Part shown: positions 1 to 12,710 of the stretch, piece after piece
How the letters are laid out: every line of letters begins with the position of its first letter
How positions within the stretch are numbered: the stretch's first letter is position 1
IMG/VR virus record: IMGVR_UViG_3300045988_019235
Location: 1-12,710 of that record
DNA: 12,710 nt
Source: a virus
Direction: 5' to 3' (one strand)
The notes under the pieces: generated by a model
What the model saw: the letters and a program-made list of their open reading frames with translations, nothing else
What the model was told of the DNA's origin: nothing
The model's database searches: none
Made by a program: the position numbers and the translations under genes

Positions 1-23
1 TTCCTCTGAACGCTCTTCCGATC
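1..23. other. Adapter-like terminal 23-mer (probable library artefact, not phage DNA)
   Basis: TTCCTCTGAACGCTCTTCCGATC contains GCTCTTCCGATC, the reverse complement of the Illumina adapter core GATCGGAAGAGC. The whole 23-mer resembles the old paired-end adapter ...TTCCTGCTGAACCGCTCTTCCGATCT apart from two 1-nt gaps. Confidence 0.7.
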
Positions 24-179
24 CAGCATAAAGGTACACAAGGCACCCATTTTTAACATTTCCCAACAGGTTTTTAACACTTGCTAACACACTTTGGCAC
101 GCTTTTTGTTGCCGTGCCACAAGTACCACAATTAACAAGCCTTAACACACTTTAACTCTGTTAAACTTTCATAAAAATG

Positions 180-224
180 ATGTTTCACGTGGAACGGTGG
201 CAAAGTGAATGTTTCACGTGGAAC
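180..224. promoter_or_regulatory. Two ATGTTTCACGTGGAAC sites (182..195 and 211..224) at the inner edge of ITR-L; candidate protein-binding sites
   Basis: The same 16-mer occurs twice, 29 bp apart. It has a CACGTG core and is a near-palindrome. The same motif recurs at 7603..7616 and at 12459..12529. Confidence 0.6.
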
Positions 225-285
225 AAAATTGCGTATATGTTAAAAAGATTTAAATTAATATTTTTGCATTATTTAACAAAAATAA

Positions 286-317
286 TTTGGTTTGTTCGTG
301 GAAAATGCTTATCTTTG
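286..317 (+). promoter_or_regulatory. Promoter P1 (Bacteroidota-type: -33 TTTG at 286..289, -7 TAtcTTTG at 310..317)
   Basis: The sequence is TTTGGT...20-nt spacer...TATCTTTGCA, lying about 45 nt upstream of the ATG at 362. The same architecture and spacing occur at P2 and P3. Confidence 0.7.
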
Positions 318-361
318 CAACAGATTTAGAAATTTAGTTCAACCCTTTAAAATACAAGAAT

Positions 362-688
362 ATGGCAACGTATGAAATTACTTTAGAGTTTGAAACAGTT
401 TTATCTGTTGACGGTACACGTGTTAAAAGTGAAACATCACGTGAAACACAAATAGTTACAGGTGTTTTTGCTGACGTGGCAAAAGTTATGTTTGAACACG
501 AAACAAACTGCATCAAGCACAACAGATTGCCAAAGTTGACGAAAGACGTTTACACCGTCTTTGAATCGAAAGATAGTTTGAACTACATCAACGAATATGG
601 ATGCTGTGTTACTCAACTTTGCAACAAATTAGGTAATAACGCTAGTTCATTCTTACAGTTGATTCAAACAAGCAAAAGAATCAAATAA
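362..688 (+). CDS. Hypothetical protein (108 aa), first gene of the left operon
   Basis: ORF directly downstream of P1 with no competing long ORF. The C-terminal segment VTQLCNKLGNNASSFLQLIQ could be helix-turn-helix-like, which is speculative. It carries a CACGTGAAACA half-site internally (438..448). Confidence 0.6.
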   Translation: MATYEITLEFETVLSVDGTRVKSETSRETQIVTGVFADVAKVMFEHETNCIKHNRLPKLTKDVYTVFESKDSLNYINEYGCCVTQLCNKLGNNASSFLQLIQTSKRIK

Positions 689-698
689 ATGTTTAACC

Positions 699-724
699 GC
701 CTGTAAGGTTCAACCCTTACAGGC
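699..724 (+). other. Intergenic 10-bp-stem hairpin GCCTGTAAGG-ttcaac-CCTTACAGGC inside a GTTTAACCGCC...GGCACAAA motif
   Basis: Perfect inverted repeat read directly. No T-tract follows, so it is not a canonical intrinsic terminator. Confidence 0.5.
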
Positions 725-739
725 ACAAACAAAAAAGTT

Positions 740-934
740 ATGATTAGAGTTGAAAAGTTTAAGTTTGAAAACCGTTTTGAATCTTTTGAAACGAAAAACA
801 TAAAGGTAGTTACAAAAGCGTTAAAAGACTATCGTTTTTGTGGTGGCGGTTTATATATCCACACAAAGTTTGTCGGGCAATATGCAAAGGTGGATTTTAT
901 AGACGTTAACGGCAAACCTGTTAAAAGCATATAA
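740..934 (+). CDS. Hypothetical protein (64 aa)
   Basis: ORF in the same orientation and tightly spaced within the left operon. No recognisable motif. Confidence 0.5.
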   Translation: MIRVEKFKFENRFESFETKNIKVVTKALKDYRFCGGGLYIHTKFVGQYAKVDFIDVNGKPVKSI

Positions 935-969
935 GTTTAACCGCCCTTATGGGCACAAATAATTGATAT

Positions 970-1164
970 ATGGAATATTCATATTTTAAAATTACATTGA
1001 AACAGTCGGACAAAGTAACCGTGTATATGGTACGTTCTGACAAAGTAAGCGAGTTTTTCAACAACAAAATCGACTATTTACAGGGCGACTGTTCGATAAC
1101 TGTAAAGGGTCGTTTTCCAACGCACAAAGATTCTCGAAAGTGGTTTATTGTTTCACCTAAATAA
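970..1164 (+). CDS. Hypothetical protein (64 aa)
   Basis: ORF in operon context, ending 2 nt before the endolysin ORF. No recognisable motif. Confidence 0.5.
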   Translation: MEYSYFKITLKQSDKVTVYMVRSDKVSEFFNNKIDYLQGDCSITVKGRFPTHKDSRKWFIVSPK

Positions 1165-1172
1165 TAGTGTAT

Positions 1173-1595
1173 ATGAAAAAGATTAAGTATTTTAGTTTGA
1201 ATGAGTTTATCACCTCACCAACTGCAAAACGTTTGGGCATTGACAATTTGCCAACGTTTGAAATCGTTGACAACTTGAATCGTCTTGCCGATTATTTGGA
1301 TGGCATCCGTGAAAAGTTAGGCAAACCGATATTGATTAATAGCGGTTATCGTTCACCGATTCTTAATAAAGCGGTTGGCGGTGTGTCTAACAGTCAACAC
1401 CTTAAAGGTTTGGCTGCGGATATTGTTTGCTCTGATATGGAATCTTTGTTAAAGGTTCTTAGAGAAACAGGCGGTTTTGACCAACTTATTAAGGAACACC
1501 GCAAAGGTTCTACATCTTTTTGGTATCACGTTTCAGTTTGTTCACGTAACGGCAAACCCCGTAATCAAGTAATAATGAATCTAGAAAAGAAATAG
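1173..1595 (+). CDS. Endolysin, zinc peptidase M15 family (VanY / L-Ala-D-Glu peptidase-like)
   Basis: SQHLKGLAAD matches the M15 zinc-binding signature SxHxxGxAxD, and a downstream His lies in FWYHVS. It is single-domain, with no signal peptide or TM segment. The ORF track begins at GTG 1167; ATG 1173 (MKKIKYF...) is the more likely start. Confidence 0.85.
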   Translation: MKKIKYFSLNEFITSPTAKRLGIDNLPTFEIVDNLNRLADYLDGIREKLGKPILINSGYRSPILNKAVGGVSNSQHLKGLAADIVCSDMESLLKVLRETGGFDQLIKEHRKGSTSFWYHVSVCSRNGKPRNQVIMNLEKK

Positions 1596-1597
1596 TT

Positions 1598-1846
1598 ATG
1601 CACGAACATTTTAAACTTCTGAAAGATTCCATTTCAGTAACAAAGAAAAGTATTGAAACTGTTGCAAACGATTCAGCTAGCGAAACAGGTTTACTGTTAA
1701 CTTCGTGTGCTGATACCTTACAGGCGAATTTGATTTTCATTGATGCTTTAGAAGTTAAAGCACAAACCTGTTTAGCAGAACGAAACGACCTGTTAACGTT
1801 CATCAATAACAAAGGGTTGTTAGAAGAATTTTATGGTAAGAAATAA
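1598..1846 (+). CDS. Hypothetical protein (82 aa), last gene of the left operon
   Basis: ATG 2 nt after the endolysin stop. Predicted to be helical, with no clear TM segment. Followed by the bidirectional terminator. Confidence 0.55.
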   Translation: MHEHFKLLKDSISVTKKSIETVANDSASETGLLLTSCADTLQANLIFIDALEVKAQTCLAERNDLLTFINNKGLLEEFYGKK

Positions 1847-1850
1847 AGAA

Positions 1851-1878
1851 AACGGGCGGCATCCATTTACCGCCCGTT
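1851..1878. terminator. Bidirectional intrinsic terminator between convergent operons
   Basis: AACGGGCGG-catccattta-CCGCCCGTT is a perfect 9-bp GC-rich stem. It is followed by ATCTTTT on the + strand and by TTTTCTTTATTT on the - strand. It sits between the stops at 1846 (+) and 1884 (-). Confidence 0.8.
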
Positions 1879-1883
1879 ATCTT

Positions 1884-3977
1884 TTATAGATAAACACCTG
1901 TTTCAAGCTGTGAAACAATTTCGTTATATTCATCAACCAACAGATTTGCCGTGTTCAAATTCACGTTGGAAAACTGTGCGAAACCTGTAACCGCATTTAT
2001 AGTTACGTTTTCTTGCGTGTTGTTTACAGGAACATCAACGGTTAAATTCTCAGTAATCAATACATAAGGTTCTAAACCGTACAAAATTTGTTCGTTCCAT
2101 TGTTCACCGCCAACAACGTTTAAATCCGTTCCCAAACGGTAAAGAACATCACGTGACAAAGAAAAACTTTCAATTTGGAATGTCACACCGTCACACGATA
2201 ACAACGCAACAGAATCGCCCGTAATAACGTTTACTTTGATAGTTAAATTAATCGTTTTACCGATGTATTTACTATCTATAGTAACAACACCCCGACACGG
2301 AATAAACATCTGTACCTGTGCGTTAAAGTCTTCATTGTTACCGTTTGCGCCTGTTAGTTCAACGTTTCCGAAATCTAGAACAATAACATCACTATCGGGA
2401 TATTTTACATTTATTCCCGTGTTGTAGTTACCGCATTTCAGAACGTCATCACCGCCAACGGGAACGGTTGTAAAGATTCTTTTGATACGGTTTACATATT
2501 GACCCAAATTGACTTCTGAATATTTTGCACCCGTTTCTGTTTCCCCTGTTTGAACAAAGAAACGTTTCTTTGCAAACTCATCCAAATTCGCCAACGTAAC
2601 GATATAAACGTTTATAGCACCGTAATTTTTGATAGTTGGCGGTGTAACTACATTCGCATTCGCAACGATATTCAAATCAACTGCATTCGGTGTTAAAGTG
2701 AACGTTACACTACCCGTTTGTTTATCTGCTGATATTGTACCGTTTACAACTACGGGATTCCCGTCATCATCTTTGAAATTTGCTTCAATTTCGGTCAATT
2801 CCGTGTTCGGGTTTGCTCTGAAATTAAACGTGTAACTTTGACCCGTTTTAACCTTTACAGGTTTATCGCCAACGATTTCGCAATTAGTCAAACCGTATTG
2901 AACTTCGATATATTTACCTAATAAGTACTCACCGTTGATAATAACCGATTCCGTTGCTATAGGCACAATAGCCGTTGCGGTTTGGTTCGTTACAGTCATA
3001 TTGTAGGTTTCGCCACCGTATGTTATCGTTGGCGTACCGTTAAACATTCCCTTTGCGTTTCCTGTAACCGTTACGGTGTAATTTGTTTCACTTGCAACAG
3101 AACTTGCTGTTGTGTTCTGAATATTGTTGGTTATTTGCAGTTCACGAACACCCGAAATAAAACTACCTGTTATAGTAATTTCGTCACCCTTAGAACAATA
3201 AACAGTAAGTGTTGCAACGTTACCCGATACGGCAAACGGTTCTTTTGTATAGTTTCCATCCCAATCGGTATAACTAGCCATCAAATTGCTAAATGTGCCC
3301 TCACCGTTACCCGTCACCGTTACATTGAAGTGGTGGGCATCCGTTCCCTGTTGGTCGGTTATTGTAACGTCACCCGTCAAACCTGTTTTGTCATAAGACA
3401 ACAAAGTTGTCGGTGTTGGTGGGTCGGGTGTGCCACCGCTTACAAACTCACCTGTTATCGCAATCTCATCACCTTTATTACAGTAAACCGTAATCGTTCC
3501 AACGTTACCCGATACGGCAAACGGTTCTTTTGTATAGTTTCCATCCCAATCGGTATAACTAGCCATCAAATTGCTAAATGTGCCCTCACCGTTACCCGTC
3601 ACCGTTACATTGAAGTGGTGGGCATCCGTTCCCTGTTGGTCGGTTATTGTAACGTCACCCGTCAAACCTGTTGTGTCGTATTTTAACAAGTTTGTGGGCG
3701 TTGGTGTACCGCTTACAAATTCACCGTAAACCGTAACGGTGTTCCAATAGTTTGTGTTGGCAAATAATGTGGCGACTTTTCCGTTAACTGTAAACGGGTG
3801 TTTTGCCCAATCGCCATCCATATTTTCATAGCCACCCGATAAACCGTCTTTAAAATAACCGTCAACGTTTCCCGTCAAAGTTATTTTAAAATGTTTGTCG
3901 TCACCGTCTTGTTCAACTTTCGTTGAAACATCACCGACAAATCGTGATAAACTAATATTTACTAATCTTTCAGCCAT
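1884..3977 (-). CDS. Tail / receptor-binding protein (697 aa) with N-terminal tandem beta-sandwich-like repeats
   Basis: Last and largest gene of the structural operon. It has three about 95-aa tandem modules at the N-terminus (two near-identical), further Ig-like-looking segments and a distinct about 250-aa C-terminal domain. Function is inferred from position and architecture only. Confidence 0.55.
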   Translation of the reverse strand: MAERLVNISLSRFVGDVSTKVEQDGDDKHFKITLTGNVDGYFKDGLSGGYENMDGDWAKHPFTVNGKVATLFANTNYWNTVTVYGEFVSGTPTPTNLLKYDTTGLTGDVTITDQQGTDAHHFNVTVTGNGEGTFSNLMASYTDWDGNYTKEPFAVSGNVGTITVYCNKGDEIAITGEFVSGGTPDPPTPTTLLSYDKTGLTGDVTITDQQGTDAHHFNVTVTGNGEGTFSNLMASYTDWDGNYTKEPFAVSGNVATLTVYCSKGDEITITGSFISGVRELQITNNIQNTTASSVASETNYTVTVTGNAKGMFNGTPTITYGGETYNMTVTNQTATAIVPIATESVIINGEYLLGKYIEVQYGLTNCEIVGDKPVKVKTGQSYTFNFRANPNTELTEIEANFKDDDGNPVVVNGTISADKQTGSVTFTLTPNAVDLNIVANANVVTPPTIKNYGAINVYIVTLANLDEFAKKRFFVQTGETETGAKYSEVNLGQYVNRIKRIFTTVPVGGDDVLKCGNYNTGINVKYPDSDVIVLDFGNVELTGANGNNEDFNAQVQMFIPCRGVVTIDSKYIGKTINLTIKVNVITGDSVALLSCDGVTFQIESFSLSRDVLYRLGTDLNVVGGEQWNEQILYGLEPYVLITENLTVDVPVNNTQENVTINAVTGFAQFSNVNLNTANLLVDEYNEIVSQLETGVYL
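3123..3977 (-). repeat. Tandem 285-bp (95-codon) coding repeat, three units (3693..3977 diverged; 3408..3692 and 3123..3407 near-identical)
   Basis: 3216..3387 and 3501..3672 are 172 bp of perfect identity, checked base by base, offset by exactly 285 bp. Confidence 0.9.
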
Positions 3978-4425
3978 ATTTTAAAACGTTACCTTTAATA
4001 GTTACCATAACAATACTACCTGTTTCGTTCAACAACCCCTTATTCGGAAAATCTAGTTTTCTGATGTTAGGTCGAACGTCAACAACGTTTGAACGGTTTG
4101 AAAGATATTTGTTTCCGTTTTCGCTTTTAGTCAACGTTGCAGTACTGTTTAAGATAATATCCTTATAAGTAAACAGAACGTCAACACGTAAACGAACGGT
4201 GCAAATATCGCCATCCTGTTGTTTCTCTGAAACGAAATAATAACGGTTCAAACTTTCGATATAAACATAGTTAAACGTTACAGGGGTTCGTGTTCTGAAA
4301 CGAACAACAGGGGTTAACACGTTGAACGTTGCATTCAACACACCCGTATATTCTTCGTTTTCCTGTAACGTCTTGTTTACTTCATTCGGTTTACCGTTGT
4401 AAATGAAAGTTTTAATTTTAACCAT
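3970..4425 (-). CDS. Hypothetical structural protein (151 aa), possible tail/collar component
   Basis: Lies between the capsid and tail-fibre genes. Its stop overlaps the start of the 697-aa gene by 8 nt, suggesting translational coupling. No motif recognised. Confidence 0.5.
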   Translation of the reverse strand: MVKIKTFIYNGKPNEVNKTLQENEEYTGVLNATFNVLTPVVRFRTRTPVTFNYVYIESLNRYYFVSEKQQDGDICTVRLRVDVLFTYKDIILNSTATLTKSENGNKYLSNRSNVVDVRPNIRKLDFPNKGLLNETGSIVMVTIKGNVLKYG

Positions 4426-4430
4426 ACCTT

Positions 4431-4477
4431 AAAAGCTAAAAGGGGCATCCCTGTGCTATCAACTACAGGAACACCCC
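4431..4477 (-). terminator. Intrinsic terminator/attenuator downstream of the major capsid gene
   Basis: The minus-strand RNA reads GGGGUGUUCCUGU-aguugauagc-ACAGGGAUGCCCC followed by UUUUAGCUUUU. This is a 13-bp stem including 3 G-U pairs that only form in the minus-strand sense. Confidence 0.55.
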
Positions 4478-4496
4478 AACAGTTAAACAACTAAAA

Positions 4497-5681
4497 TTAG
4501 GCAACAAAGAACACAACAAAGTTTTCGTTTGTGTCGTTGAAGTAACCCGCATCAAACTTGAAATAGTTGTTGAAAAACTCTGCTTTTGCGTTGTAGTTGG
4601 TGGTTACTCGCTTATCCAAATTTGTAACACCCAACGCATCACGGTCGAACATCACACCCAACACACCGCTAACTGAAACGCTCGCACCGCTTGCCGATTT
4701 AACGTCAATCTTTGAAACGTCTGCAAAAGCGTAATCTGTGCCTGTTGCTTGCCAACTTGCAACGGTTTCAGCCTGTGGCAACAGAACGTTCTCGCTGTGG
4801 AACGTGTCGGCATACAGGTATGCTTTTGCAGCGGCTGCGAAATCGGACAACAGAACGGTGTGCAAAACGTCTTTCGGTGTGAATCGTTCCTTACCGCCAA
4901 CGTTGAACAGGGTTGAAATTGTCTGCAAACGGTCGGCATACAAACCCATTGTATAGGCTGCAAAACGGATGAAATCGGGTGTGGTTACTGCTGCGTCTGC
5001 GGTCAAATGTGCGCCCGTCTTAGTGTTGTAAAGTTTCAACAGGTTCACGCAACGAACAGTACTAGCAATTGAATAGTCAACAGTTTCGTGTGTTGATGCT
5101 AACCAACCGAAAGCGGTTTTGTCGGCATTCAAAGTTTCCGCAATCATATTGTTAATTGTGCGCATAACAAGCGCATCCGTCTTGATAGTCATTGACTTCT
5201 CAACTGCGGAATAAATCATTGACAGGAAACCGTTCAACTGCTCTGCACTACTGAAAGATTCCTTTACCTGTCTTTCGGTAATTGATACAGGAACTTCAAA
5301 AGTTACCTTTGAGTTGAAGAACTTAGCGGAAACGGTCGGTTTGTGGAACACGTCTTGTTTGTACTCTGTACCGTCTTTGAGATTCCACGTGTCGTTTTCC
5401 TCAGCCTGTGGAACGTCAGCGGAAATCTTTTCCAAAACGCTACCAAATTCCCACGCATCCATAAGAACACTCGGAACTTTACCCGAATAAGGGCGGTTCA
5501 CAAAAACAACCTTACCGATGTGGTTAACCAACGATTTAACGTAATTATCCACGGCATTTTGGTTGAACACTTCGTTACCCAAATCAACCAAACCTGTAAG
5601 GTCTTCGTGTACCAAATCGGTTTTGCCCAATACTTCACCCGAAACGGTGTTAACTAAACTATAAATCTGCTTTACATTCAT
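4497..5681 (-). CDS. Major capsid protein (HK97-fold, phi29 gp8-like)
   Basis: 394 aa. The N-terminal region (NYVKSLVNHIGKVVFVNR) parallels the phi29 gp8 segment FITSLVDRIGLVVIRQ recalled from memory. Its position downstream of the connector and the following attenuator fit a highly expressed capsid gene. Confidence 0.75.
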   Translation of the reverse strand: MNVKQIYSLVNTVSGEVLGKTDLVHEDLTGLVDLGNEVFNQNAVDNYVKSLVNHIGKVVFVNRPYSGKVPSVLMDAWEFGSVLEKISADVPQAEENDTWNLKDGTEYKQDVFHKPTVSAKFFNSKVTFEVPVSITERQVKESFSSAEQLNGFLSMIYSAVEKSMTIKTDALVMRTINNMIAETLNADKTAFGWLASTHETVDYSIASTVRCVNLLKLYNTKTGAHLTADAAVTTPDFIRFAAYTMGLYADRLQTISTLFNVGGKERFTPKDVLHTVLLSDFAAAAKAYLYADTFHSENVLLPQAETVASWQATGTDYAFADVSKIDVKSASGASVSVSGVLGVMFDRDALGVTNLDKRVTTNYNAKAEFFNNYFKFDAGYFNDTNENFVVFFVA

Positions 5682-5701
5682 TTTTATAAAAATTTTATGT
5701 A

Positions 5702-6271
5702 TTAATAAATATCTATTGTTAACTCTTTTGCAAGTTCTGTTATCACTTGCGTTTTGAAATTAGTTTTGCGCAAACTCATTTCTTTTTGAATAATTTCACT
5801 AGTTGGAACACTAGACGGAACACCGTTCTTAATACTTGTTTTCGTGCCCGTTTCTTGTCTGTTCCCTGTGGAATCTCTTTGCTGTTTCGTGTCATTTCCA
5901 AATTCCCCATTATTAAACGTTACACTTGAATCGACTGTGCTGTTATTGCCTGTTTCGTCAACGGTGTTACTTGTTGTTTCCGTTGTCTTTGACGTTACAG
6001 GGTTCAACACGTCATATTCTTTATTAAACACTTGAATCTGTTTTTGCCATTCGCCAAACTTTACTGTAATAATACCTTTGACAATATCGTTTGCAGTTTC
6101 GTTTGTAACGGCATCACACAAAGTTCTGTTTCCATATTTGAAACGAAAATCAATATCTATTATTTTCGGGTCATCCGTGCCGAATATTGATTCATACAAA
6201 ACAGGAAACAGGGGTTTAAAGATTTTATCAAATAAACCGTTTTCAGTTGTAAAAAGTTCATTAATTTTCAT
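5702..6271 (-). CDS. Hypothetical structural protein (189 aa), possible scaffold or head-associated protein
   Basis: Lies between the connector and capsid genes. Its start overlaps the connector stop by 11 nt. The middle is T/S/N-rich low complexity and the C-terminus is helical. Function is inferred from position only. Confidence 0.45.
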   Translation of the reverse strand: MKINELFTTENGLFDKIFKPLFPVLYESIFGTDDPKIIDIDFRFKYGNRTLCDAVTNETANDIVKGIITVKFGEWQKQIQVFNKEYDVLNPVTSKTTETTSNTVDETGNNSTVDSSVTFNNGEFGNDTKQQRDSTGNRQETGTKTSIKNGVPSSVPTSEIIQKEMSLRKTNFKTQVITELAKELTIDIY

Positions 6272-7325
6272 CTTTGTTTTCTTTTTCTTCTGTTTCTTCT
6301 GTTTCTTGCGTTTCTTCTGTTTCTGTTTCTGTTTCTTCTGTTTCTTCTGTTTCTTCTGTTTCTGTTTCCGTTTCTTCTGTTTCTTGCGTTTCTTCTGTTT
6401 CGTTTTCCGTTACAGGGTCAACGTCTTCTGTGTCGGTGTGTTCGTGCCCGTCTTCTGTTGCTTTGAGCAACGACAAATAATTTTCGTGTTCGATTTTCCA
6501 ACTTGACCCCAAAGTTACGGTAATATCCGTACCGAACATTTCGTTAACACGTTTCACACCCTCAACACGTTCTGTTAACATTGAATCAACGAACGGCATC
6601 AAAGCATCAATATTCATTGAAACTTCTTGCGTGTTCAATCGTTCACGTTTCATATTATAGTTTGCATTCAAACCCAAATCGTTGAACATTGATGCTTTGT
6701 AGTACTGCAACAGTTCTATTAATTGACCGATTTGTTGGTTTCCCTGTGTCGGTGGGGTCTGTAAGTTTACACCTTTGAAAAAAGCATTTTCACCGATAAC
6801 AGAAAAATCACCGTTCAAAATTTTCTGTAAGAACGATTCTGCACTCTGTTTGGTCTTATCGTCACTTGCCGAAATCAACATAGTGATGCGGGTCAATATG
6901 CTAGCCAAATTCAAAGTTATTGTGGCATCCGTGTAAAGTACACCATATTTGCCGATAATAGGCATAAGCGAATCCGCAAACGGTGTGTTATTGATAACTA
7001 CAATATCCTCATCAATTTTGAACGTTTTGTTCAACTTTAACCACGGGTTTGCAACAACGTAATCTTTGCCGTGATAATAGGCATCACAATCGCCACCCCG
7101 TGTGCCCTGTAAAGCATACAAATCCCCGTTGACTTCTGCTATTCCAACGTTACCCGTTGTTTGAAGAATCTTTTCAAGTTCAACAGGCGGCATTGTTTCG
7201 GGCATCCCCGTGTAAACAAACATTTTTGAAGTCATACAAAGAACACGTTGCATAAATGTGAATAATGCTGTATCTTTGTTTTTAACTTCTGTTTGAAACC
7301 TGTTATATAAGTTTTCTTTTTCCAT
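6261..7325 (-). CDS. Portal / head-tail connector (phi29 gp10 upper-collar-like) with acidic Glu/Thr-repeat C-terminal tail
   Basis: 354 aa. Size and pattern parallel phi29 gp10 as recalled from memory: MPETMPPVELEKILQTTGNVG near the N-terminus and NYNMKRERLNTQEVSMN in the centre. Confidence 0.75.
   Translation of the reverse strand: MEKENLYNRFQTEVKNKDTALFTFMQRVLCMTSKMFVYTGMPETMPPVELEKILQTTGNVGIAEVNGDLYALQGTRGGDCDAYYHGKDYVVANPWLKLNKTFKIDEDIVVINNTPFADSLMPIIGKYGVLYTDATITLNLASILTRITMLISASDDKTKQSAESFLQKILNGDFSVIGENAFFKGVNLQTPPTQGNQQIGQLIELLQYYKASMFNDLGLNANYNMKRERLNTQEVSMNIDALMPFVDSMLTERVEGVKRVNEMFGTDITVTLGSSWKIEHENYLSLLKATEDGHEHTDTEDVDPVTENETEETQETEETETETEETEETEETETETEETQETEETEEKENKDEN
6285..6410 (-). 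repeat. Coding microsatellite-like (TTCTGTTTC/TTCTGT)n tract encoding a 42-aa Glu/Thr tail
   Basis: The peptide TENETEETQETEETETETEETEETEETETETEETQETEETEE contains only E and T apart from one N and two Q. The DNA shows higher-order repeats. Confidence 0.9.
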
Positions 7326-7520
7326 TTACTTAATCAAAGTTTTAATTAAGGTACAAAGTTCTGTGAGCACCTTTGTGTTACTTTGTACCGTTTCATTTAA
7401 CTTGTCGGTTTCGTTTTGGTGTCGTTCGTTCTGTTTTTCCATATAGAAAAATAGGGCGACACACACCGCAACAGGAAAACCAACGTTGCTAATAAGTGAA
7501 ATTATTCCGTTTGCATCCAT
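7326..7520 (-). CDS. Small membrane protein (64 aa; N-terminal TM helix plus helical tail), holin candidate
   Basis: GIISLISNVGFPVAVCVALFFYM is the only clear TM segment in the genome. The ISNVGFPVAV pattern recalls YvrJ-family small membrane proteins (from memory, unverified). It is the first gene after P2, and its stop abuts the connector ATG. Confidence 0.6.
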   Translation of the reverse strand: MDANGIISLISNVGFPVAVCVALFFYMEKQNERHQNETDKLNETVQSNTKVLTELCTLIKTLIK

Positions 7521-7553
7521 ATAGTAATTTTTTAACTTTGTTATTTAACGCTG

Positions 7554-7585
7554 CAAAGATAATAACTTTATTTGGTTTCACCAAA
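7554..7585 (-). promoter_or_regulatory. Promoter P2 (Bacteroidota-type) for the structural operon
   Basis: The minus strand reads TTTGGTG...20-nt spacer...TATCTTTGCAG. The -33 element is the complement of 7582..7585 and the -7 element the complement of 7554..7561. It lies about 34 nt upstream of the ATG at 7520. Confidence 0.7.
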
Positions 7586-7588
7586 TAA

Positions 7589-7632
7589 AACAGGGGAAAA
7601 ATGTTTCACGTGAAACAATTTTAACCCCTGTT
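7589..7632 (-). terminator. Terminator hairpin of the replication/packaging operon, with the GTTTCACGTGAAAC palindrome (7603..7616) embedded
   Basis: The outer 8-bp stem AACAGGGG/CCCCTGTT (7589..7596 / 7625..7632) encloses AAAA..TTTT and the perfect 14-bp palindrome. On the minus strand the hairpin is followed by TTTTATTTGG, which contains the -33 TTTG of P2. It starts 9 nt after the ATPase stop. Confidence 0.65.
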
Positions 7633-7640
7633 AACAGATA

Positions 7641-8780
7641 TTAAGTAATAATATTACTGCGAGCACTCGCCATTAAATAGTTACGAACGATTTCGCCAAT
7701 TTCGTTACTTTGATAAAATACCTTATCGGTAGCGAAATATTTAGTTATCTGCGATTCTATATACGTTGCAGTACTCAACAACTTTCGTTTGTAGTTCGGT
7801 TTGCCGTTCATTTGCAACGAATAAATCAAACTGTTGTCGGTGTCCTTAATCGGTGTTGTTTTGTTGTGAATGTAAATGAAATTATTCACACCGTTTTCTT
7901 TGTCCTCAACCTGTATCACGTTACCCTGTAACGTCATTTCGTTAAACTGAATATAGAAGACAAACAACACGTCACTCGGTTTATATTTTACAGGTAGGTG
8001 CGGATATACTGCTAGTTCCCATTTACCGCCCGTAATCATTTGCAAATTTTGGTTGTCGAAACAGAAATATTTGTTACTCGCTTTCTGTTTGACAACAGTA
8101 CTGCAATATTCAACCGCAACCGTTGCACCGTGCTCACCGAACTTATAAATATCTATTGTGCCCTGTTCCATCACTCGCACCTGTTTCAATCCCATTTCGG
8201 TAAAATACGGGCAAAACTGATTCACGGTATTACCTAACATAAAGACTTTAACATCATTTCTTTGACGAATAATTGTACTCAACAGGTTCATATATAGCAT
8301 AAACTCATCGGGCAAATAATAACGTCTTGTAAGGAACTCATCGAAAACAATAGTAGTTATGTTCGGGTAACTGCTAGATTTTTCGTGTTCCTGTTCTGAA
8401 AGACAAAAACCATAACAGAACGGTGTGTTTTCGGGCACACGTTTTTTCGTTTCTGCATCATAGAACGAAAGAAACCATTTACCCGAAACGTAAAACACTT
8501 CGTTAAACTTACCGTTTGTAAGTTCTTTTATCACACCGTTTGCCACGTGATTTGCAAACAAACTTTCTGCACGTTTGCCCCTTAAATCTTCTCGCCAACG
8601 TCTAATATAAGCCATTTGTTTACCTGTGCGCAAATATTCTTTTATTCCATACAACAACGTTGCATACGTCTTGCCGTTGGAACGTTCACCGAAAATAACG
8701 TTGTAATCTGCATTTTTTGATAAAATACGATTCAACGTGTAAAATTTAGGTGTTTCAACTTTTTCTTTTTTCTGTTTCAT
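7641..8780 (-). CDS. DNA encapsidation (packaging) ATPase, phi29 gp16-like
   Basis: 379 aa. Walker A is GERSNGKT (codons at 8667..8690) and Walker B-like is TTIVFDEF. Size and single-subunit organisation are typical of phi29-type packaging ATPases. Confidence 0.8.
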   Translation of the reverse strand: MKQKKEKVETPKFYTLNRILSKNADYNVIFGERSNGKTYATLLYGIKEYLRTGKQMAYIRRWREDLRGKRAESLFANHVANGVIKELTNGKFNEVFYVSGKWFLSFYDAETKKRVPENTPFCYGFCLSEQEHEKSSSYPNITTIVFDEFLTRRYYLPDEFMLYMNLLSTIIRQRNDVKVFMLGNTVNQFCPYFTEMGLKQVRVMEQGTIDIYKFGEHGATVAVEYCSTVVKQKASNKYFCFDNQNLQMITGGKWELAVYPHLPVKYKPSDVLFVFYIQFNEMTLQGNVIQVEDKENGVNNFIYIHNKTTPIKDTDNSLIYSLQMNGKPNYKRKLLSTATYIESQITKYFATDKVFYQSNEIGEIVRNYLMASARSNIIT

Positions 8781-8781
8781 A

Positions 8782-10989
8782 TTATTCCTTTTTTAATCTT
8801 ATTCCCATTAAATAATTTATATAAAGAACTGAAAGACTCAAAGTGTACCCCGTTGGTTCTAAATGTACCCCTGTGGTCGTATCGTAACTTGAAACGTTTC
8901 CCTTATAGTCTTTTATCGTTCCCGTTTGTTCGTAATCTATATACGTGTGGATGTTCTTACCTGTTGCACTCGGTGGGATGTCTAGATAGTTTGTGAACGC
9001 ATCGAACACACCATTTTCACCGTACGTTTCCACCATATAGGGGATAGCTGATTTCTTGTTGACACCCGAAACGGTCATAGAGTAATTATAATTTTTGCCG
9101 TTTACTGTAAGGGCATTTTCTTCTTCAACCATATATCTTTTAGCACCCAAAGTTTTAAAACGGCTGTATCTACCCTCATAGTCCCAAACCCCCAAAGGTT
9201 TTGCTATTCCCTTTATTGTGACGGGTTCAACTTTTTCAAAGGGGATTTTATGATGCTTACAGGCTGCACGCAATTTCTGTTGTGCCAAATCGTTGTATGC
9301 TTTGAAATATTCTTTGTGGGCATCCCCGTTCATTATTTTGACTGAATCGGTGTCGCTGTATATGTAATCGTCACCGCATTCTGAAATACCTGTAAACAAG
9401 TTTCTTCTTGCATAGGCGGTTACATAAATACCCCACGGGTAAAATAAAAAGCGGTTTTTGCTATCGTTGTATTTATTGAGCATTTCTAATTGCTTTTCGC
9501 CTGTAAGGTGTTCCACATCCCACGTTTCCCCGTCACATAGAATCTCATCACGCAACGGGTTTGTAACACACATACCGTAACAACTATTAAGCATTTCTTT
9601 ACTATTCAGATATTCCACTTCTTTACCCTTTACACCTTTAAGTTTCGTCTTCATTTCATACAGGTGCAAAATTGATTCCACAAATTCGGTCGGCAAATAT
9701 TCTTTGCGGTAACAAATCATTCGCCCGATTCTTATTTGTTCCCACGTGTAAAACTGTGAAAACACTTTGTAATCTATTTCTGTAATCGTCATACAGATTT
9801 TCTTTGCACAAACCAATCTACCGTTATTCTCGGAAACGTTTTCTTTGACGAAACATTTACTTACCGATATAGGGTTTTCGTTTTCTGATTTCGCAAATAT
9901 GTTTGTGATTTCTACATCGAACACACAACAAAATTTGCTAGTCATAAACTCAAACTGTTTCATAGACTTTACAGGAACAAAAACACCTGTGCTCATCGGG
10001 AATTTTTCCGACACCATAACATAAGGGTAACTGCTAGTAAAATCGTAACTATCTACGTTTTCAATTACCTCATCGGTATATTTTGCGTTTGCGTGTGTGA
10101 AACCGCCCGAAAACGCCCTTTGCAGCATAGAAAACTCTTCTAAACCTGTAATATTCAAAGAATGAATCTTATCAATATATTTAAAGTTAGGAATCGTTTT
10201 CCCCGTTTCGTCAGTTGTTTTAAAGCATACAGAACGGCAATACTTTCGGACAAACCCCGTTTTTGTAATCGGCAAACGTGTTATTCCTTTATATTGTTCT
10301 ATTAATTCCTGTATATAGCACATCACAACTTTTATGTCGTTCAAACAGTAACCAATTTCTTTTTGGGTCAACGGTGTTTCGCTGTGGCGCAACAGGGAAT
10401 AATCTAAATCCCCGACTAACTTTTCACATTTATATTTGTGAAGTTGTTCACCCAATTTCGCCAACGAATATCCCGAAAGTAAGTAACTGCATCGGAACTC
10501 TAAACCCGTTTTAGTTATTCCGTAAATAGGTTTTCTAAGGTCTATAGAAAAAACTTTTTCCCATTCCAACAGTTCACGGAAAAACTGAAATTCATAAGCT
10601 AAGTTATGCACGTATATAATAACACGCTTTTTCGGGCATAGTTCCAATATAGCCACGATTTCGACTAACATATTCAAAAACTCATCCCACGTTCTACCAA
10701 TAATGCAAAAACCGTTTATTCCAAATTGCCACACATACATCAAAGAACATTTTTCCATTTTGGTTTGTTTACCGCCTAATTTCATATAACGTTCATAACT
10801 GTATGTTTCGCCATCCGCATCCCTGTAAAAAGATGTAGTTTCAATATCGAAAGAAACAGGCACATTAAGGAACTTTTCGCCCTTATTATTGCCTGTAAAA
10901 TTCTTTTCGTTCACCGCCAAAGATAAAACCTTTGCAATATCTTTTGGGGTGTAAACTTCTGTTTGTAGTTCAAAGGGTATTTTCTTCAT
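8782..10989 (-). CDS. Protein-primed family-B DNA polymerase
   Basis: Motifs read directly: Exo I FDIET, Exo II HNLAYEF, Exo III YCLND, FSGG (YxGG-like), motif A DFTSSYPY, motif B KEMLNSCYG, motif C YSDTDS and KxY (AKRY). The long motif A to B spacing is compatible with a TPR1 insertion. The genome has ITRs. Confidence 0.92.
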   Translation of the reverse strand: MKKIPFELQTEVYTPKDIAKVLSLAVNEKNFTGNNKGEKFLNVPVSFDIETTSFYRDADGETYSYERYMKLGGKQTKMEKCSLMYVWQFGINGFCIIGRTWDEFLNMLVEIVAILELCPKKRVIIYVHNLAYEFQFFRELLEWEKVFSIDLRKPIYGITKTGLEFRCSYLLSGYSLAKLGEQLHKYKCEKLVGDLDYSLLRHSETPLTQKEIGYCLNDIKVVMCYIQELIEQYKGITRLPITKTGFVRKYCRSVCFKTTDETGKTIPNFKYIDKIHSLNITGLEEFSMLQRAFSGGFTHANAKYTDEVIENVDSYDFTSSYPYVMVSEKFPMSTGVFVPVKSMKQFEFMTSKFCCVFDVEITNIFAKSENENPISVSKCFVKENVSENNGRLVCAKKICMTITEIDYKVFSQFYTWEQIRIGRMICYRKEYLPTEFVESILHLYEMKTKLKGVKGKEVEYLNSKEMLNSCYGMCVTNPLRDEILCDGETWDVEHLTGEKQLEMLNKYNDSKNRFLFYPWGIYVTAYARRNLFTGISECGDDYIYSDTDSVKIMNGDAHKEYFKAYNDLAQQKLRAACKHHKIPFEKVEPVTIKGIAKPLGVWDYEGRYSRFKTLGAKRYMVEEENALTVNGKNYNYSMTVSGVNKKSAIPYMVETYGENGVFDAFTNYLDIPPSATGKNIHTYIDYEQTGTIKDYKGNVSSYDTTTGVHLEPTGYTLSLSVLYINYLMGIRLKKE

Positions 10990-11660
10990 TATAAACCAAA
11001 TTTTTCAAATTCTTGCAATATCTTTTTTAACGGCTCATCCGTTTTAAATTCGTCAACGTCATTCACGTATGCTTCTGCTGTACCACTGTGGGCGATTTGG
11101 TCTATTGCATCATCCAACGCATTTTCAATTCTAACCGCATCGTCTTCGATTTGGTCGGACACGTCACGGGATTCCTGTTCAAGTTCACCTGTAAAGTCTT
11201 TATATTGCATTAAGTATTGTTCCAAAAATCTTTCATCGGAAACACTTGCAATTTTACCCATTAATTTATCTTGCATCAACTTAAATTCTTTATCGTTTAA
11301 GTCGTAAGACTTCTTTAAGTGATTTGAGTACTCACGTGTACCACTTGCCGTTGATGTCGGTTGTTGCAAAAAAGAAACCGCTTTGGAATATTCGATTTTT
11401 AAATCGTTCCAATCGTGTTTCATTGAAAATTTTGCGAAACCTTTGATGTCACCTTTGTTCAACGCAACAACTGCGGGCGAAACCAAACCCATTTTTTCCA
11501 CGTTTTGGATTCTTCGATTTGCCTGTTGAAATACACGGGCGATTTCTTTGCGTAAATAGCCACGTGATTCTATTGCATCCATTATCTGCTTATCTACGTG
11601 TATTTTAGAAGTTGATGCAAAAGTTCTTTTTGAAAAACCTATCGGATTCAATTTAGCCAT
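10989..11660 (-). CDS. Candidate terminal protein (223 aa)
   Basis: Immediately upstream of the polymerase and translationally coupled to it (TAATG overlap at 10989), as in phi29 gene 3 / gene 2. The N-terminal half is basic and the C-terminal third strongly acidic, as in the DNA-mimicking priming domain of known TPs. No sequence-level proof. Confidence 0.5.
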   Translation of the reverse strand: MAKLNPIGFSKRTFASTSKIHVDKQIMDAIESRGYLRKEIARVFQQANRRIQNVEKMGLVSPAVVALNKGDIKGFAKFSMKHDWNDLKIEYSKAVSFLQQPTSTASGTREYSNHLKKSYDLNDKEFKLMQDKLMGKIASVSDERFLEQYLMQYKDFTGELEQESRDVSDQIEDDAVRIENALDDAIDQIAHSGTAEAYVNDVDEFKTDEPLKKILQEFEKFGL

Positions 11661-11684
11661 ATTATTACAGTTTTAAAATGAAAC

Positions 11685-11727
11685 AAAAAACGGGGCAACA
11701 ATAAACAAAGTTACTGTTTACCCCGTC
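11685..11727 (-). terminator. Putative attenuator/terminator between the 121-aa gene and the TP-polymerase genes
   Basis: The minus-strand RNA reads ACGGGGUAA...UUGCCCCGU, a 9-bp stem with one G-U pair, followed by UUUUUU. It starts 30 nt after the stop at 11757 and ends about 24 nt before the ATG at 11660. Confidence 0.45.
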
Positions 11728-11756
11728 ACGTTATCCACCCTTTACCCTACGAAAAA

Positions 11757-12122
11757 CTACTTATCTACAAACGTTATACCATAACATTTCTTTGCGTGCG
11801 ATTCATATTCGTAAATCGTGTAACCAACTTTGTTGGCTTTGATAGCATCAACCGCCTCACTATCTGCGAGAATCTCACGAATCGTGTCACCTGTGAACTG
11901 TGGCAAATTTACAAGACGTTTGTTCTCGGCATCAATAATAACAGGCGAATCACCCAACTGCGATTTGTGAACGTACATACCGTTGATAGGGTGTACCACA
12001 TCACCGCCACCCTCATTCTCGCTGTTGAAAATGTCGGTCAACTTTACAAACGGAAAATCGGTTGTATCAATACCGAAACTTGTCTTATTGAACTTACTTG
12101 CAAAACTAAAACCTTTAGCCAT
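11757..12122 (-). CDS. Early protein (121 aa), possible ssDNA-binding protein
   Basis: Its size and position (upstream of TP and polymerase) mirror phi29 p5 (124 aa). The C-terminal strand-loop-strand pattern is loosely similar. Weak evidence. Confidence 0.55.
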   Translation of the reverse strand: MAKGFSFASKFNKTSFGIDTTDFPFVKLTDIFNSENEGGGDVVHPINGMYVHKSQLGDSPVIIDAENKRLVNLPQFTGDTIREILADSEAVDAIKANKVGYTIYEYESHAKKCYGITFVDK

Positions 12123-12156
12123 AACTTAATCTTTTTAAAACGTTAAACTTCTGTTG

Positions 12157-12324
12157 TTACTTTACTTCATTCAAACCGTTTGCAGCCGCAAAATCGTTCA
12201 ACCACTTCTTAAAGCGGTTCAACTTAATAACCGCCTTATCGTCTTTAGCAACTTCGTTTGAAGTCATTAAAGCGTTAACACTTGTAATACAGTTGAAAAC
12301 AGTTTCATTAAAATTTTCGTTCAT
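12157..12324 (-). CDS. Small early protein (55 aa), absent from the supplied ORF track
   Basis: Hand translation of the minus strand gives MNENFNETVFNCITSVNALMTSNEVAKDDKAVIKLNRFKKWLNDFAAANGLNEVK*. The ATG at 12324 lies about 45 nt downstream of P3, and the ORF fills an otherwise empty gap before the 121-aa gene. Confidence 0.55.
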   Translation of the reverse strand: MNENFNETVFNCITSVNALMTSNEVAKDDKAVIKLNRFKKWLNDFAAANGLNEVK

Positions 12325-12374
12325 AACTTACCTAATTTAAATTGTTAAACTTATATTGTTTATTAAACACGGTG

Positions 12375-12406
12375 CAAAGATACGTCTTTTTCTAATAACC
12401 ACCAAA
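12375..12406 (-). promoter_or_regulatory. Promoter P3 (Bacteroidota-type) for the right-end replication operon
   Basis: The minus strand reads TTTGGTG...20-nt spacer...TATCTTTGCAC. The -33 element is the complement of 12403..12406 and the -7 element the complement of 12375..12382. The upstream TTAACtAAAATAATTTGGT is 18/19 identical to the equivalent P1 segment. Confidence 0.7.
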
Positions 12407-12458
12407 TTATTTTAGTTAAAAAGTATTAAAGAATAAAATTAATATCTGTTAACACTTC

Positions 12459-12529
12459 GTTTCACGTGAAACATTAATAACAGTTTGTTCCACGTGAAAC
12501 ATTCACTTTGCCACCGTTCCACGTGAAAC
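12459..12529. promoter_or_regulatory. Three phased GTT(T/C)CACGTGAAAC sites (12459..12472 unique perfect palindrome; 12487..12500 and 12516..12529 in ITR-R)
   Basis: Read directly. Spacing is 28 and 29 bp. The unique copy is flanked by the CTGTTA/TAACAG inverted repeat (12446..12451 / 12478..12483). Confidence 0.6.
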
Positions 12530-12710
12530 ATCATTTTTATGAAAGTTTAACAGAGTTAAAGTGTGTTAAGGCTTGTTAATTGTGGTACTTGTGGCACGGC
12601 AACAAAAAGCGTGCCAAAGTGTGTTAGCAAGTGTTAAAAACCTGTTGGGAAATGTTAAAAATGGGTGCCTTGTGTACCTTTATGCTGGATCGGAAGAGCG
12701 TTCAGAGGAA
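12484..12710. repeat. Right inverted terminal repeat (ITR-R)
   Basis: Exact reverse complement of 1..227. Confidence 0.95.
12688..12710. other. Adapter-like terminal 23-mer (mirror copy)
   Basis: GATCGGAAGAGCGTTCAGAGGAA, compared with the Illumina PE adapter GATCGGAAGAGCGGTTCAGCAGGAA... as recalled from memory. Confidence 0.7.

Follow-up and report, generated by a model that had tools for sequence, protein, structure and literature searches.

ParB (Spo0J) is a dimeric host protein that nucleates at parS, where its dimers bind cytidine triphosphate (CTP), close into clamps and slide. The closest described phage counterpart of the system reported here is Bacillus phage phi29, whose parS sites are bound by the host's Spo0J, a protein involved in segregation of phage DNA into the prespore (Meijer et al. 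2005, as summarized in PMC2731898); the same source ties suppression of lytic growth to parS together with Spo0A sites. Phage genomes are also inherited via ParB-parS in the plasmid-prophages P1 and N15 and in extrachromosomal mycobacteriophages; these elements encode their own ParA and ParB and use a non-chromosomal parS of their own (PMC7157519). SGI1, an integrative mobile element that lacks partition proteins of its own, carries parS copies which are served by the parABS of its helper, an IncC plasmid (PMC10954446). Here, we analyzed a window of 12,710 nt, i.e., the stretch from position 1 to 12,710 of the IMG/VR virus record IMGVR_UViG_3300045988_019235, in which an initial annotation had noticed six copies of a 14-bp palindrome, GTTTCACGTG(G/A)AAC, at the genome ends and between early and late genes. 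Judged by their sequence, these six palindromes are canonical chromosomal-type parS centromere sites of ParB/Spo0J, and the phage probably recruits the ParB of its host to them for positioning and partition of its genome, possibly along with promoter silencing.

The window is a complete 12.7-kb genome of a phi29-like protein-primed podophage with 16 open reading frames (ORFs). Matches to GTTTCACGTGRAAC are found at 182-195 and 211-224 on the plus strand, at 7603-7616 and 12459-12472, where the palindrome is perfect, and at 12487-12500 and 12516-12529 on the minus strand, compared to 0.00 chance matches in 200 dinucleotide-preserving shuffles. The conserved unit comprises 16 rather than 14 bp. 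Using the published parS criterion of a 16-bp palindrome with ≤2 mismatches to TGTTTCACGTGAAACA (PMC7022226, PMC10197239), all six sites qualify, with 0, 1, 1, 1, 2 and 2 mismatches:

181..196, left terminal repeat: parS copy L1, TGTTTCACGTGGAACG, 2 mismatches to TGTTTCACGTGAAACA
210..225, left terminal repeat: parS copy L2, TGTTTCACGTGGAACA, 1 mismatch, the variant of phi29's four sites
7602..7617, center: perfect 16/16 match to TGTTTCACGTGAAACA, 24 nt 3′ of the stop codon of the gp16-like ATPase gene, at the apex of a hairpin
12458..12473, just inside the right terminal repeat: parS copy R3, CGTTTCACGTGAAACA, 1 mismatch
12486..12501, right terminal repeat: parS copy R2, mirror of L2
12515..12530, right terminal repeat: parS copy R1, mirror of L1

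When ≤3 mismatches are allowed, the whole window contains eight matches to TGTTTCACGTGAAACA, the six sites and two weak ones, compared to 0.33 expected. Outside the six sites, the bare CACGTG core (8 vs. 4.1±2.1 expected) and the half-site GTTYCAC (12 vs. 5.9±2.2 expected) show a weak excess. A literature search with the 16-mer returned only ParB/parS papers. The same sequence is tabulated as the parS consensus for Alpha- and Betaproteobacteria (PMC7022226), and parS sites with ≤2 mismatches occur in 12 of 12 OMM12 gut genomes, including Bacteroides caecimuris, at 1-10 sites per genome, with ParABS homologues in all 12 (PMC10197239). The phage sites thus share with chromosomal ParABS centromeres (consensus tGTTtCACGTGAAACa) the 16-bp palindrome and the clustering of copies with 0-2 mismatches, but differ from them in lying on a 12.7-kb linear viral genome instead of near oriC and in having no linked parA or parB.

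The similarities to phi29 (NC_011048) are extensive. Both are protein-primed podophages with several canonical parS sites and no ParB of their own, and all four phi29 copies are of the variant TGTTTCACGTGGAACA, the G variant of the terminal-repeat copies of the window. Each phage also has a site that follows the packaging-ATPase gene directly on its 3′ side, beside a terminator; the phi29 site at 17243-17258 starts one base after the stop codon of gene 16 and adjoins the terminator TD1. In contrast, the phi29 sites are internal and its terminal repeat measures 6 bp, whereas four of the six sites of the window are inside repeats of about 200 bp. Furthermore, phi29 employs its parS in spore entrapment together with Spo0A boxes, which are not enriched in the window (one TGTCGAA vs. 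2.6 expected, away from the promoters). The two polymerases are only ∼23% identical, and in tblastn searches against phi29 only the connector, ATPase and polymerase matched. Unlike P1- and N15-type plasmid-prophages, the window phage has neither its own partition proteins nor its own type of parS but a copy of the host site (PMC7157519), and unlike SGI1 it is of virulent type and would exploit a chromosomal system instead of a helper plasmid (PMC10954446).

Conservation analysis showed that the sites are retained in the relatives of this phage. A polymerase scan yielded 80 loci, all ≥90% identical to the polymerase of the window, and nearly every one of them with assembled ends carries 1-5 sites per end as well as the central site; apparent absences among the 80 correspond to truncated contigs. 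A further scan for more distant relatives by alignment again gave mostly close ones. Pairs in the terminal repeats are found despite non-aligning surroundings in loci L218-224, L139 (polymerase identity ∼69%), L108 (58%) and L105 (45%), whereas L086 and L180 (65%) have their parS pair outside the terminal repeats. Conservation is limited to the 16-mer, which persists in these diverged relatives (45-69% polymerase identity) while flanks and spacers diverge: 227 terminal sites comprise 15 distinct 16-mers, and 132 spacers comprise 83 distinct sequences. Within the 16-mer the information content is ∼2 bits, with lower values at positions 8, 12 and 16, and it falls to 0-0.5 bits at most flanking positions, in a calculation that is partly circular as the sites were chosen by match. 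Spacing of the terminal sites ranges from 26 to 42 bp with modes at 28-29 and 36-37 bp, and a fixed helical phasing was therefore rejected. This free variation of copy number, spacing and spacer around an invariant 16-mer argues for a selected protein-binding site rather than for a fixed origin structure.

Several descriptive statements of the initial annotation are borne out by these data. The six copies are present where it had placed them and are not expected by chance, and the terminal repeats (1-227 and 12484-12710, 100% identical) contain two copies each with a further one just inside the right repeat. All copies are also non-coding as claimed, since they lie outside conserved genes and the sole overlapping ORF is a mechanical 50-aa ORF at 177-329; the genes at 7641-8780 and 7326-7520 are separated by 120 nt, which contain the central site. 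The reported phasing of 28-29 bp is correct for the window, but does not represent a conserved phase. The view that the site is unrelated to known ones and lacks a recognizable binder had to be abandoned, as it is the canonical parS of ParB/Spo0J.

In addition, ten close relatives (L025, L059, L051, L056, L057, L061, L064, L065, L067 and L072) have no CACGTG outside parS. L025 and L059 lack it entirely, and the parS cores in L025 read CATGTG and CACGCG. This pattern may reflect avoidance of a CACGTG-specific restriction system.

A scan of IMG/VR for two motif copies 10-20 nt apart identified >119 contigs with parS pairs, which range from 4 kb to 247 kb and differ strongly in GC content and style of ribosome-binding sites. 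Most of them are unrelated to the window, indicating that the motif is not specific to its phage family. Of 108 additional parS-pair loci, 45 (∼40%) are phi29-like according to tblastn matches to core proteins of the window, and the most distant of these encode DNA_pol_B_2, Phi29_MCP, Gp16 or gp9 tail-knob domains in Pfam searches. The phi29-like carriers come from ten or more lineages, several of which are evidently of Firmicutes type. Those from other lineages have only core proteins in common with the window, and no small protein is shared among the carriers. Their parS pairs are located 3′ of the gp16 gene (L081, L094, L087), just 5′ of it (L090), or between the capsid and tail-knob genes (L165, L133, L174). 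Counted at ≤2 mismatches in further phi29-like records from cultured phages and fecal contigs, parS sites number four in phi29, three in Bacillus phage Chedec 11, one of them directly 3′ of the packaging gene, two in Clostridium phage HM2, one in Amedibacillus phage AD70P2, two in the fecal contig MT836125, and none in several other records.

A parS site or pair adjoins the gp16 ATPase gene in at least seven phi29-like lineages with polymerases of only 20-35% identity, e.g., phi29 (L190, 17243-17258), Chedec 11 (L204, 1587-1602), the window (7602-7617), L081, L094, L087 and L090. Common descent or convergence might account for this placement, or no other intergenic region may be free. In contigs of unrelated tailed phages the pair is often found just upstream of the large terminase gene, as in three contigs of 54-62 kb and 22 kb with a canonical parS pair directly at this place (L141, 7497-7534; L122, 8259-8305; L119, 8701-8745).

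None of the 16 ORFs of the window has a ParB, ParA or other DNA-binding assignment in Pfam or PHROG, and a parA/parB cassette of plasmid or prophage type is absent from them in the same searches. Tblastn with an approximate Spo0J query, of limited weight on its own, gave no match in the window or in the fetched loci, of which the large contigs were covered in part. Likewise, the ten scanned proteins flanking parS pairs in non-phi29 contigs include no ParB and were capsid, protease, terminase or unknown proteins. Nor do the small ORFs of the window, which the initial annotation had listed as candidate binders (55, 64, 64, 82, 108 and 121 aa), include p4- or p6-like proteins according to Pfam and PHROG, and their distribution does not follow that of the motif. 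L215 and L216 retain the 121-, 55-, 64- and 82-aa proteins, yet have no terminal parS; L105 has parS in its terminal repeats and none of the candidate proteins; and the 108-aa protein and one 64-aa protein are missing from many close relatives with parS. The 121-aa protein (11757-12122, minus strand) is 79-85% identical in relatives whose polymerases are 68-80% identical, and is encoded upstream of the putative terminal-protein gene, at the position of the single-stranded DNA-binding protein (SSB) and p6 genes of phi29. Its protein clusters have up to 1,700 member sequences; none of 507 homologues is named or contains a Pfam domain, and an AlphaFold2 model was unusable with a mean predicted local distance difference test score (pLDDT) of 47. 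Because the phage encodes no ParB and no small protein tracks the motif, the simplest candidate for the binder would be the host's own ParB.

The positions of the sites relative to genome ends and promoters are best seen together with the following elements:

30..227: true left inverted terminal repeat, starts 5′-AAAGGTACAC
94..108, plus strand: family-specific terminal motif TTGGCACGCTTTTTG, not parS
286..318, plus strand: left promoter-like element, heading the left-arm genes, whose first ATG is at 362
7553..7585, minus strand: central promoter-like element, heading the holin/structural operon, whose first ATG is at 7520
7589..7632, minus strand: terminator-like hairpin after the early (polymerase/ATPase) operon, with outer stem AACAGGGG/CCCCTGTT, parS as upper stem and a U-rich tail
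12374..12406, minus strand: right promoter-like element, heading the early replication operon, whose first ATG is at 12324
12484..12681: true right inverted terminal repeat
12603..12617, minus strand: mirror of the family-specific terminal motif

The outermost bases of the window are not genomic. Bases 1-23 and their mirror are sequencing adapter (..GCTCTTCCGATC, also written ..GAACGCTCTTCCGATC), followed by six unexplained bases, CAGCAT, so that 1-29 and 12682-12710 are affected. Many relatives have the complete Illumina adapter joined to 5′-AAAGGTACAC without intervening bases. This places the true termini at ∼30 and 12681, gives a true repeat of ∼198 nt, and indicates that the contig extends to the physical ends of the genome. 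The true termini begin with AAA, like those of phi29, and the terminal site pairs are located ∼160 and ∼190 bp from each of them.

Promoter-like elements of the form TTTG-N20-TATCTTTGC occur only three times in the window compared to 0.1 expected. All three are downstream of parS copies, with 61, 17 and 52 nt between the nearest copy and the first promoter box, in agreement with the initial report of motif copies upstream of three promoters. The TTTG-N20-TAnnTTTG build, which matches the Bacteroidota −33/−7 consensus, is readable also as a weak sigma-70 promoter.

The hairpin at the central site has a folding energy of −20.8 kcal/mol (z = −4.2), and its outer stem shows compensatory AT<->GC and CG<->AT changes across 78 distinct relatives. 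In L215 the outer stem is wholly different while the parS apex is retained; thus, the central site is a terminator element and a parS at once. An explanation of the motif by the hairpin alone was rejected, since unrelated phages share the 16-mer and the copies near the ends precede promoters.

We infer that host ParB binds the phage sites and acts there in partition or silencing. Dimers of host ParB (Spo0J) would nucleate on the phage parS, with two sites at each end, one extra site on the right and one in the center, and CTP-bound clamps would slide from these entry sites across the 12.7-kb linear genome. Accumulation of ParB-CTP requires DNA that is closed or whose end is capped by a roadblock (PMC7053999), and the covalent terminal protein could represent the end-cap that keeps clamps from running off; this requirement would provide a rationale for sites beside protein-capped termini. 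The partition complex would couple the phage DNA to the ParA/SMC machinery of the host, and phage genomes would be positioned and inherited by daughter cells during delayed lysis, for instance in carrier states or in hosts that grow slowly. Secondarily, loading of ParB might also damp the nearby promoters, given that each cluster of sites precedes one of them by 17-61 nt.

While phi29-like phages carrying a host parS are already known from phi29 and Bacillus, the location in terminal repeats, the apparently non-sporulating host, and the wide spread among protein-primed podophages are added here; among the papers covered, a literature search found no hijacking of host ParB by gut or phi29-like phages besides phi29. 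An orphan regulatory palindrome thereby becomes a testable host-virus interaction, and a very abundant gut phage family turns out to bear a host centromere sequence at both ends and in the center. If host ParB loads on these sites, this would offer a mechanism for keeping apparently strictly lytic small podophages in dividing gut hosts and would widen the single phi29/Bacillus-spore precedent to non-sporulating hosts and many phage lineages. A parS in a viral contig could also serve as a searchable marker and hints at a host with a canonical ParB. More speculatively, virulent-looking phi29-like phages of non-sporulating gut bacteria might persist as terminal-protein-capped linear episomes that are segregated by host ParABS, with the capped ends as barrier for ParB clamps, and protein-primed podophages (ten or more lineages) as well as other tailed phages might generally persist by copying the host centromere; we offer this broader scenario tentatively, with considerably less confidence than recruitment of ParB as such.

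Several observations weigh against recruitment of host ParB. L215 and L216 are complete genomes with terminal repeats of 400-417 nt and adapter-fused AAAGGTAC ends, which have no parS in these repeats. As two complete relatives do without them, the terminal parS copies are accessory and no part of the replication origin. L025 shows core decay (to CATGTG, to CACGCG and by an indel) at all three positions that could be examined, namely the central site and the two terminal sites seen at one end. Together, the absence in L215/L216 and the decay in L025 indicate that any benefit of the sites is conditional. Moreover, the terminator hairpin alone could account for part of the conservation of the central copy. 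No cultured phage matched the whole window by megablast. The nearest cultured relatives are Astrithr-like phages of Gammaproteobacteria with polymerase identities of 42-47%, and four genomes of this group contain neither parS nor any CACGTG. Those from Salmonella and Pectobacterium, hosts that are not known to have chromosomal ParABS, speak in favor of a use of host ParB. However, the phages of Vibrio and Acinetobacter are also without parS though their hosts have ParB, showing that the association between parS and host ParABS is not strict.

The host assignment adds to these reservations. Three stand-alone phage contigs (L195, L196 and L197), the sole matches in genome collections at ≥89% polymerase identity, were binned in Gastranaerophilales/Melainabacteria metagenome-assembled genomes from two projects, in conflict with the Bacteroidota-like promoter build. 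Recognition of the site by the host's ParB is assumed from the near-universality of parS, which is expected to be usable in either candidate host group. Neither Bacteroidota nor Gastranaerophilales are known to sporulate. With an apparently non-sporulating host and no enrichment of Spo0A boxes, spore entrapment, the known use in phi29, does not apply here.

Host ParB could instead mainly silence or time the three phage promoters, as a latency switch that responds to host state, with partition as a secondary function. Such a role would fit the location of each cluster 17-61 nt upstream of the first box of a promoter-like element, the repression of adjacent promoters by ParB at high-affinity parS in Pseudomonas aeruginosa (PMC5521831), and the coupling in phi29 between suppressed lytic growth and its parS and Spo0A sites (PMC2731898). 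However, the distance between site and promoter lacks conservation, copy number and spacing are variable, the pairs of L086 and L180 are placed elsewhere, pairs of other phi29-like lineages are found between capsid and tail-knob genes, and L215 and L216 have the same promoters without terminal parS, so we consider a primarily regulatory function unlikely. A decoy function, in which the parS copies titrate host ParB and thereby disturb segregation, SMC loading or cell-cycle control, would not need a phage ParB either, and replication of the phage would raise its six high-affinity sites to hundreds per cell, more than the few parS sites of a host (1-10 per genome in the OMM12 set). For a decoy, positions by the termini and within a terminator would be irrelevant, yet these are conserved, and the phi29 sites act in cis on phage DNA (PMC2731898); titration therefore seems highly improbable to us.

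The initial annotation had favored a dimeric protein that organizes the replication origins and switches transcription from early to late in analogy to phi29 p4/p6, and had named the ORFs of 55 to 121 aa or a host factor as its source. Sites in the terminal repeats and beside promoters, which resemble p4/p6 in their location near genome ends and at the early/late boundary, would be compatible with a phage-encoded protein, as would the unusual conservation of the 121-aa protein, which has no known function. However, the motif is identical to the host parS and common to unrelated phages without the candidate proteins, no small protein co-varies with it, terminal copies are missing from complete relatives, Pfam and PHROG give no DNA-binding match for the small ORFs, and a separate terminal motif specific to the family is better suited as origin element. 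Binding by p6 involves no defined palindrome, and the p4 sites bear no sequence relation to the palindrome of the window; homologues of p4 or p6 were not detected in the window, whose palindrome is the site of a host protein. The appropriate counterparts in phi29 are therefore its parS sites, bound by host Spo0J, and a phage-encoded binder retains very little probability. What survives of the proposal is a site for a dimeric DNA-binding protein, with the host factor as best candidate rather than the small phage proteins. An effect on transcription may likewise exist and would act through ParB bound near the three promoters. An essential role in organizing the origins is unlikely, given complete relatives without terminal copies, Astrithr-like genomes without any, and the fixed place of the separate terminal motif. 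Recruitment of host ParB for partition is thus the reading that we prefer.

This separate motif, TTGGCACGNTWTTTG, has a constant position ∼65 nt inside the true ends, with 1-2 copies per end, in almost every member of the family. It is present in L215, which lacks terminal parS, as well as in L086 and L180, which have their parS pair outside the terminal repeats, and was found in none of the unrelated loci. TTGGCACGNTWTTTG is probably the phage's own origin-proximal protein-binding site and a better candidate for this role than parS. In L215 (170-230) and L216 (140-200), three tandem copies of GCATAAATATRCGCT are located where relatives carry terminal parS, which suggests a swappable accessory-site module between origin and promoter.

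The gene content underlying the assignment of the window is as follows:

1167-1595: M15 endolysin
4497-5681, minus strand: phi29-type major capsid protein (Pfam Phi29_MCP)
6261-7325, minus strand: connector (Pfam)
7326-7520: holin-like 64-aa protein
7641-8780, minus strand: gp16-like DNA-packaging ATPase (Pfam Gp16), immediately upstream of the central parS
8782-10989, minus strand: protein-primed family-B DNA polymerase (Pfam DNA_pol_B_2)

The connector ends in an acidic C-terminal (ETEET)n tail, encoded by a repeat with a 9-nt period at 6260-6410 (minus strand), and many public assemblies of the phage break near this region, leading to contigs of ∼6.0-6.2 kb. The gene for a 697-aa tail/receptor-binding protein contains a 257-nt direct repeat (3165-3421 and 3450-3706, 285 nt downstream and 91% identical), specifying a ∼95-aa domain twice. 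A strong GC-rich hairpin with T-tracts at 1851-1878, probably a bidirectional terminator, separates the left-arm genes (end at 1846) from the convergent tail gene (end at 1884).

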